Below, piece after piece: positions 62,231 to 62,264 of a stretch of 64,000 nucleotides of DNA (the first letter of the stretch is position 1; each line of letters begins with the position of its first letter). The notes under the pieces were generated by a model. It did no database searches and was not told where the DNA came from. It saw nothing but the letters and a program-made list of their open reading frames with translations. The position numbers were made by a program, and so were the translations under genes. The stretch comes from Escherichia coli (GTDB lineage: Bacteria > Pseudomonadota > Gammaproteobacteria > Enterobacterales > Enterobacteriaceae): NCBI RefSeq assembly GCF_030384885.1, contig NZ_CP128613.1; one strand, given 5' to 3'.

Positions 62231-62236
62231 TATTAC

Positions 62237-62257
62237 GGGCCGTCTGGCCCGTTTTTG
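62237..62257. terminator. Bidirectional terminator between convergent glgS and ubiK
   Basis: gggcc-gtct-ggccc hairpin followed by gttttt; the whole glgS-ubiK gap is only 34 bp. Confidence 0.6.
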
Positions 62258-62264
62258 TGTTGCT

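Follow-up and report, generated by a model that had tools for sequence, protein, structure and literature searches.

The Yqi and Yqi-like fimbrial operons of Escherichia coli are relatives that occupy different places and exclude one another, with Yqi found in phylogroup B2 and Yqi-like in phylogroups A, B1, D, and E (Wurpel 2013, PMC3559732). The yqi or ExPEC adhesin I (EA/I) cluster of APEC IMT5155, a strain of the ST95-complex, spans 4,975 bp (Antão 2009, PMC2771359). In IMT5155, UPEC CFT073, and ST95 strains, this type presents the gene order subunit, usher, chaperone, and adhesin (PMC2771359; PMC8545135), and in ST95-32 it lies directly downstream of ribB. The literature reports adhesion for the IMT5155 cluster and, for that of CFT073, glycan binding. 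The K-12 Yqi-like operon, ygiL-yqiG-yqiH-yqiI, stands between glgS and ubiK (PMC3559732). In Salmonella Typhimurium, yqiC (ubiK) encodes a 99-residue protein and is convergent with glgS and divergent from ribB (Carrica 2011, PMC3107778).

Here, we analyzed a 64,000-nt stretch of E. coli DNA (the window), in which glgS and ubiK are direct neighbors. We consider it highly probable that this junction is ancestral, that a fimbrial island replaced part of it in K-12, and that the window strain carries a separate operon of the Yqi/EA-I type at the ribB-zupT site.

Convergent junction and predicted terminator hairpin

The window is 100% identical to positions 4244853-4308852 of NZ_CP027579.1 (E. coli 2013C-4282; human stool, USA). 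The glgS gene (62030..62230, plus strand, 66 aa) matched the Pfam GlgS family (PF08971) over its full length, with 66/66 profile positions, 153.9 bits, and E=1e-45. The ubiK gene, also named yqiC (62265..62564, minus strand, 99 aa), matched the BMFP family (PF04380) with 96.2 bits and E=2e-27, its residues 1-78 covering profile positions 1-77 of 77 (full length). The ubiK stop codon occupies 62265-62267 on the minus strand, and the convergent spacer between the two stop codons (62231..62264) measures exactly 34 bp, as it does in O157:H7 EC4115 and ST95-32. The RefSeq annotation of the identical record uses the name glgS and gives the same limits for both genes. Thus, coordinates, Pfam matches, and RefSeq annotation all agree with the initial annotation of two genes that converge on a 34-bp gap. 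The divergent region between ubiK and ribB holds the FMN riboswitch of the ribB leader (62686..62834, plus strand; Rfam RF00050, 120.9 bits), followed by ribB itself (62938..63591, plus strand), which was supported by the gene call and by the identical record. A promoter scan of 61700-63000 found nothing.

The spacer contains a hairpin, ACGGGCC-GTCT-GGCCCGT, at 62235..62252 on the plus strand. It has a stem of seven pairs (six of them G-C) and a 4-nt loop, and on the glgS strand it runs directly into TTTTTGTGTT, with a T-run at 62253-62257. Its folding energy was -19.2 kcal/mol (z=-4.3), a stability reached by 0 of 200 shuffled sequences. The G+C-rich stem, the 4-nt loop, and the T-run on the glgS strand are those of the intrinsic (Rho-independent) terminators common to convergent genes, and the element is predicted to end glgS transcription. 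Unlike in those terminators, the ubiK strand lacks a U-tract: the stem is followed there by UAAUAUCA, with three U in eight positions, and the terminator scan reported none on the minus (ubiK) strand. So, of the short bidirectional terminator hairpin proposed at first, the strong stem and the U-tract on the glgS strand stand, but no U-tract backs the second direction, although the hairpin may serve as the 3′ end of ubiK transcripts too. K-12 keeps the same CGGGCC/GGCCCG stem 3′ of glgS, and only the loop differs (TGAT in K-12 vs. GTCT in the window).

Comparison with K-12

The gene order given for K-12 in the initial annotation –yqiG-yqiH-yqiI together with ygiL between glgS and ubiK– was correct. 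BW25113 carries, one after another, glgS, yqiI, yqiH, the usher gene (yqiG), IS2, ygiL, ubiK, FMN riboswitch, ribB, yqiD, and zupT; the alternative outcome of the alignment, glgS and ubiK directly adjacent in K-12 as well, did not arise. Where the Yqi-like operon would have its four fimbrial genes, the window has only the 34-bp gap. The window strain does lack the ~5-kb K-12-type operon between glgS and ubiK, as first stated, but a homologous operon lies beyond ribB.

By blastn, homology between the window and K-12 was limited to 61000-62261 and 62334-63595. The breakpoints fall at 62261/62262 and 62333/62334, the second one within ubiK, after codon 77. The segment between them is specific to the adjacent haplotype (62262..62333, 72 bp) and comprises 3 bp of the spacer and the last 23 codons of ubiK (22 residues and the stop). 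Its K-12 counterpart is 6,637 bp long, or ~5.3 kb without IS2. This is not the clean presence/absence polymorphism initially suggested, since one sequence stands in place of another, a breakpoint is inside a gene, and the two haplotypes have different UbiK C-termini.

As a separate observation, the yqiJ-glgS side (61000-62261) was unusually divergent, with DNA 94.3% identical to K-12 vs. 97.1% for ubiK-ribB. YqiJ (61132-61761) presented only 86-88% amino acid identity to the E. coli species representative and to E. albertii, and its neighbor YqiK presented 97-98%.

Fimbrial operon downstream of ribB

The region had also been described as having no fimbrial operon. However, a homologous four-gene chaperone-usher operon begins 54 bp after ribB. 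In NZ_CP027579.1, the four genes lie on the opposite strand and encode, in this order from ribB, a 351-aa adhesin (the yqiI counterpart, named "hypothetical protein" in RefSeq), a PapD-type chaperone, an usher, and a fimbrial subunit; a yqiD-like gene and then zupT follow. Window positions 63596-64000 are identical to positions 2449-2853 of the NZ_CP027579.1 locus (L003), where the island starts, and the adhesin gene occupies 2498-3553 of that locus. The window holds 356 bp of the operon, which are the 3′ end of the adhesin gene –the last gene of the operon– at 63645..64000 on the minus strand, cut by the window end. The full set of usher, PapD-type chaperone, subunit, and adhesin is found together in NZ_CP027579.1. 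The Pfam domains of that set were Usher, PapC_N, and PapC_C for the usher, PapD_N and PapD_C for the chaperone, and Fimbrial for the subunit; the Fimbrial match of the adhesin reached 22.8 bits, under the curated cut-off of 25.6 bits.

Where ribB and the adhesin gene converge, the sequence between them holds a second hairpin, GCCGGGATATTCCCGGC, with ATTTTT after it (63618..63634, plus strand). After ribB, K-12 and O157 present an unrelated hairpin, AAACCGAAG...CTTCGGTTTTT.

The operon is closely related to the EA/I cluster of ST95-complex strains and occupies the same locus downstream of ribB. When compared to ST95-32, the amino acid identity was 99.5% for the subunit, 94.8% for the usher, 93.1% for the chaperone, and 82.9% for the adhesin, and the cluster of ST95-32 is 4,975 bp long, in agreement with the published IMT5155 length. 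Because of this identity, the shared site, and the matching length, we assign the operon that enters the window to the Yqi/EA-I type, with the gene order known for that type and a divergent adhesin allele (83% identity to that of ST95-32). Its role in fimbrial adhesion is putative. The Ygi fimbriae of CFT073 are presumably the same as Yqi.

Variation was far higher in the adhesin than in the other proteins of the operon, and the differences of the adhesin from that of ST95-32 extend along its whole length, being densest at both ends. Other E. coli carriers displayed only 85-90% overall identity to the composite query.

The K-12 Yqi-like operon shares with this one the fimbrial family, the gene order, the orientation, and a low G+C content (0.40 and 0.43 for the two E. 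coli islands vs. 0.52 for the window), and both flank the same ubiK-ribB segment. Unlike the ribB-side operon, the K-12 one sits between glgS and ubiK and comes with a changed ubiK 3′ end. The proteins are 36-59% identical: 36% for the adhesin against YqiI, 49% for the chaperone against YqiH, 56% for the usher against YqiG, and 59% for the subunit against YgiL.

Distribution in E. coli

We counted these features across 5,426 complete E. coli genomes. The K-12-type ygiL was present in 3,333 of them and the K-12-type glgS-yqiI junction in 3,310; thus, the K-12-type operon is almost always at the glgS-ubiK site. The contiguous glgS-ubiK junction was found in 2,066 genomes and the ribB-side subunit gene in 992, and 987 genomes combined the adjacency with a ribB-side adhesin in one place. 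The K-12-type and ribB-side operons almost never occurred together.

Most genomes fell into one of three states: about 61% had the K-12-type operon, about 18% had the adjacency with the ribB-side operon (as in the window), and about 20% had neither operon. O157:H7 EC4115 is an example of the adjacency with neither operon. The initial annotation considered the region a useful typing marker, and it does distinguish strain backgrounds, but as a marker with three states instead of presence/absence, and one published before. The operon polymorphism is ordinary and already known (Wurpel 2013), and as a three-state marker of E. coli strain background the region matters little beyond bookkeeping. Moreover, a K-12 operon that is missing at the K-12 site does not imply a missing function: in this case, a homologue was 1.4 kb away, cut by the window edge.

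Within this collection, the 24 kb of window positions 20000-44000 had a single genome with at least 99% identity, 2013C-4282, and the next best presented 98.7%. This strain is the only representative of its own lineage among the 5,426 genomes.

Related operons in other genera and possible translocation

Operons of the same family at the ribB-zupT site were found in Enterobacter cloacae, E. soli, E. quasihormaechei, Enterobacter sp. MGH24 (two in tandem), Citrobacter sp. FP75, Lelliottia, Pseudocitrobacter, Leclercia, and K. spallanzanii; the E. albertii contig stops at ribB. The ushers closest to the window type were those of K. spallanzanii (70%) and of the distal MGH24 copy (68%), and both were 56-57% identical to the K-12 type.

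Two operons of one family on the two sides of the 1.26-kb ubiK-ribB segment could also be a single translocated locus, if one fimbrial operon had moved across that segment in either direction. The same four-gene order and orientation and the position of both next to the same short segment would fit such a move, but DNA identity between the operons is ~65% and protein identity 36-59%, whereas their flanks are 94-97% identical, so any shared origin would lie long before E. coli. The near-zero co-occurrence, with an adjacent glgS-ubiK junction in 987 of the 992 ribB-side carriers, would fit a move too; however, clonal population structure alone can give mutual exclusivity. There is also a short similarity upstream of both subunit genes. 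The window type is closer to its ribB-site relatives in Klebsiella and Enterobacter than to K-12, which speaks against a move. Overall, we regard the translocation as improbable, and the two operons would have been acquired independently.

About 3.6 kb without any match to the fimbrial queries lie between yqiD and ribB in four loci from Citrobacter and S. arizonae (L007, L012, L015, and L023). The ribB-yqiD site may be a general insertion hotspot.

At the far end of the ribB-side island, the yqiD-like gene (positions 8060-8209 of the L003 locus, outside the window) encodes 49 aa with 72% identity to K-12 YqiD. Since this gene is shortened and divergent, the comparison suggests that the island's far boundary, too, falls within or close to a small gene. 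We compared the ribB-yqiD spacer of O157 and K-12 (139 bp) as a potential remnant of the ribB-side island, and it presented no meaningful similarity to the island and no match outside E. coli.

Outgroups and direction of the change

Scanning a single genome of each species for UbiK gave 80 loci, which did not include E. fergusonii or the cryptic Escherichia clades. Seventeen of these loci had glgS, including E. coli SCPM-O-B-8794, E. albertii, eight Citrobacter, two Salmonella subspecies, Superficieibacter, Pseudocitrobacter, Raoultella, and K. spallanzanii. In all 17, glgS was convergent and 28-73 bp downstream of ubiK, without any intervening fimbrial gene, and in 14 the spacer contained the CGGGCC/GGCCCG stem, in taxa that include E. 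albertii, Citrobacter, Salmonella, Raoultella, and Klebsiella. None of the 80 UbiK loci had a fimbrial operon between ubiK and glgS, and no outgroup with the K-12-type arrangement was found among them. The Salmonella pair shares with the window the convergent layout and the 99-residue protein and, in the subspecies sampled, the CGGGCC/GGCCCG hairpin, whereas its spacer is longer, at 73 bp in both of these subspecies.

Since the outgroups are adjacent, the stem is kept, and the PAPAIPPVD tail of UbiK is found in the window but not in K-12, we infer that the adjacency is ancestral and that K-12 is derived, its insertion having rewritten the ubiK 3′ end. The event was oriented solely by this outgroup comparison. 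The initial annotation described the adjacency as the lack of an accessory operon, whereas by this comparison K-12 is the one that changed.

Alternatively, an ancestor of the window strain could have carried the K-12-type operon, the 34-bp gap being the scar of its deletion. Such a loss is conceivable in principle, as about 61% of the complete genomes carry the operon, and fimbrial operons often decay (the K-12 copy itself is broken by IS2). However, a deletion could not recreate the 72 bp coding for a PAIPPVD tail that is common to other genera, the spacer and hairpin layout matches that of E. albertii, Citrobacter, Salmonella, and others, and no remnant of island sequence is present. On the outgroup evidence of junction layout, hairpin, and UbiK tail, we rejected the deletion scar, to which we leave a very slight probability. 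That the adjacency is an artefact of assembly or of the window is hardly credible at all, since the same contiguous junction was retrieved from 2,066 independent complete genomes (at least 80% query coverage) and occurs in other genera too.

Thus, we favor an ancestral enterobacterial convergent glgS-ubiK junction, which would be built around one conserved G+C-rich hairpin. In K-12, a low-G+C fimbrial island of ~5.3 kb (ygiL-yqiG-yqiH-yqiI) would have replaced 72 bp, with the IS2 hit coming later. This replacement would have cost UbiK its last 22 residues and given it 19 new ones, leaving intact the glgS hairpin and the conserved BMFP coiled-coil domain at residues 1-77. The window strain would never have received the K-12 island, and would have instead another member of the same fimbrial family, of the Yqi/ExPEC adhesin I type, at ribB-zupT, 1.4 kb away.

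C-terminal tail of UbiK

UbiK has 99 aa in the window and 96 aa in K-12, and the tails differ beyond codon 77. The window protein carries the ...PAIPPVD... tail, which K-12 UbiK does not. The PAPAIPPVD motif or a close variant was found in Citrobacter, Salmonella, Enterobacter, Kosakonia, Lelliottia, Leclercia, Phytobacter, and others. From these alignments, it is well supported that K-12 UbiK is a chimera, whose last 19 residues would derive from the inserted fimbrial island and stand in place of a tail that many enterobacterial genera conserve. The rewritten tail is common to about 61% of E. coli. Thus, the reference K-12 protein would have a non-ancestral C-terminus made by island insertion, and in the literature examined we found no statement of the K-12 UbiK C-terminus as a by-product of such an insertion.

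In the literature, the UbiK coiled coil occupies about residues 49-80 and is followed by a flexible C-terminus. Because the BMFP match covers residues 1-78 and the tail beyond the coiled coil is predicted to be flexible, the C-terminal swap spares the conserved part of the protein. The functional importance of the K-12 tail change is probably small, since the tail is predicted to be flexible. Should the tail touch the membrane or other components of the Ubi metabolon, ubiquinone biosynthesis could differ between the two E. coli UbiK haplotypes, a consequence that we consider unlikely.

Tandem SIB_RNA copies

Elsewhere in the window, two tandem SIB_RNA copies (Rfam RF00113, about 143 bits each) lie between hldE and yqiK, at 58692-58842 and 59069-59219 on the plus strand. 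They are sibD/sibE-type antitoxin sRNAs opposite small ibs toxin ORFs. The repeated ORFs at 58808-59113 and 59185-59382 are explained by these tandem copies. In ST95-32, just one ibs gene is annotated between hldE and yqiK.
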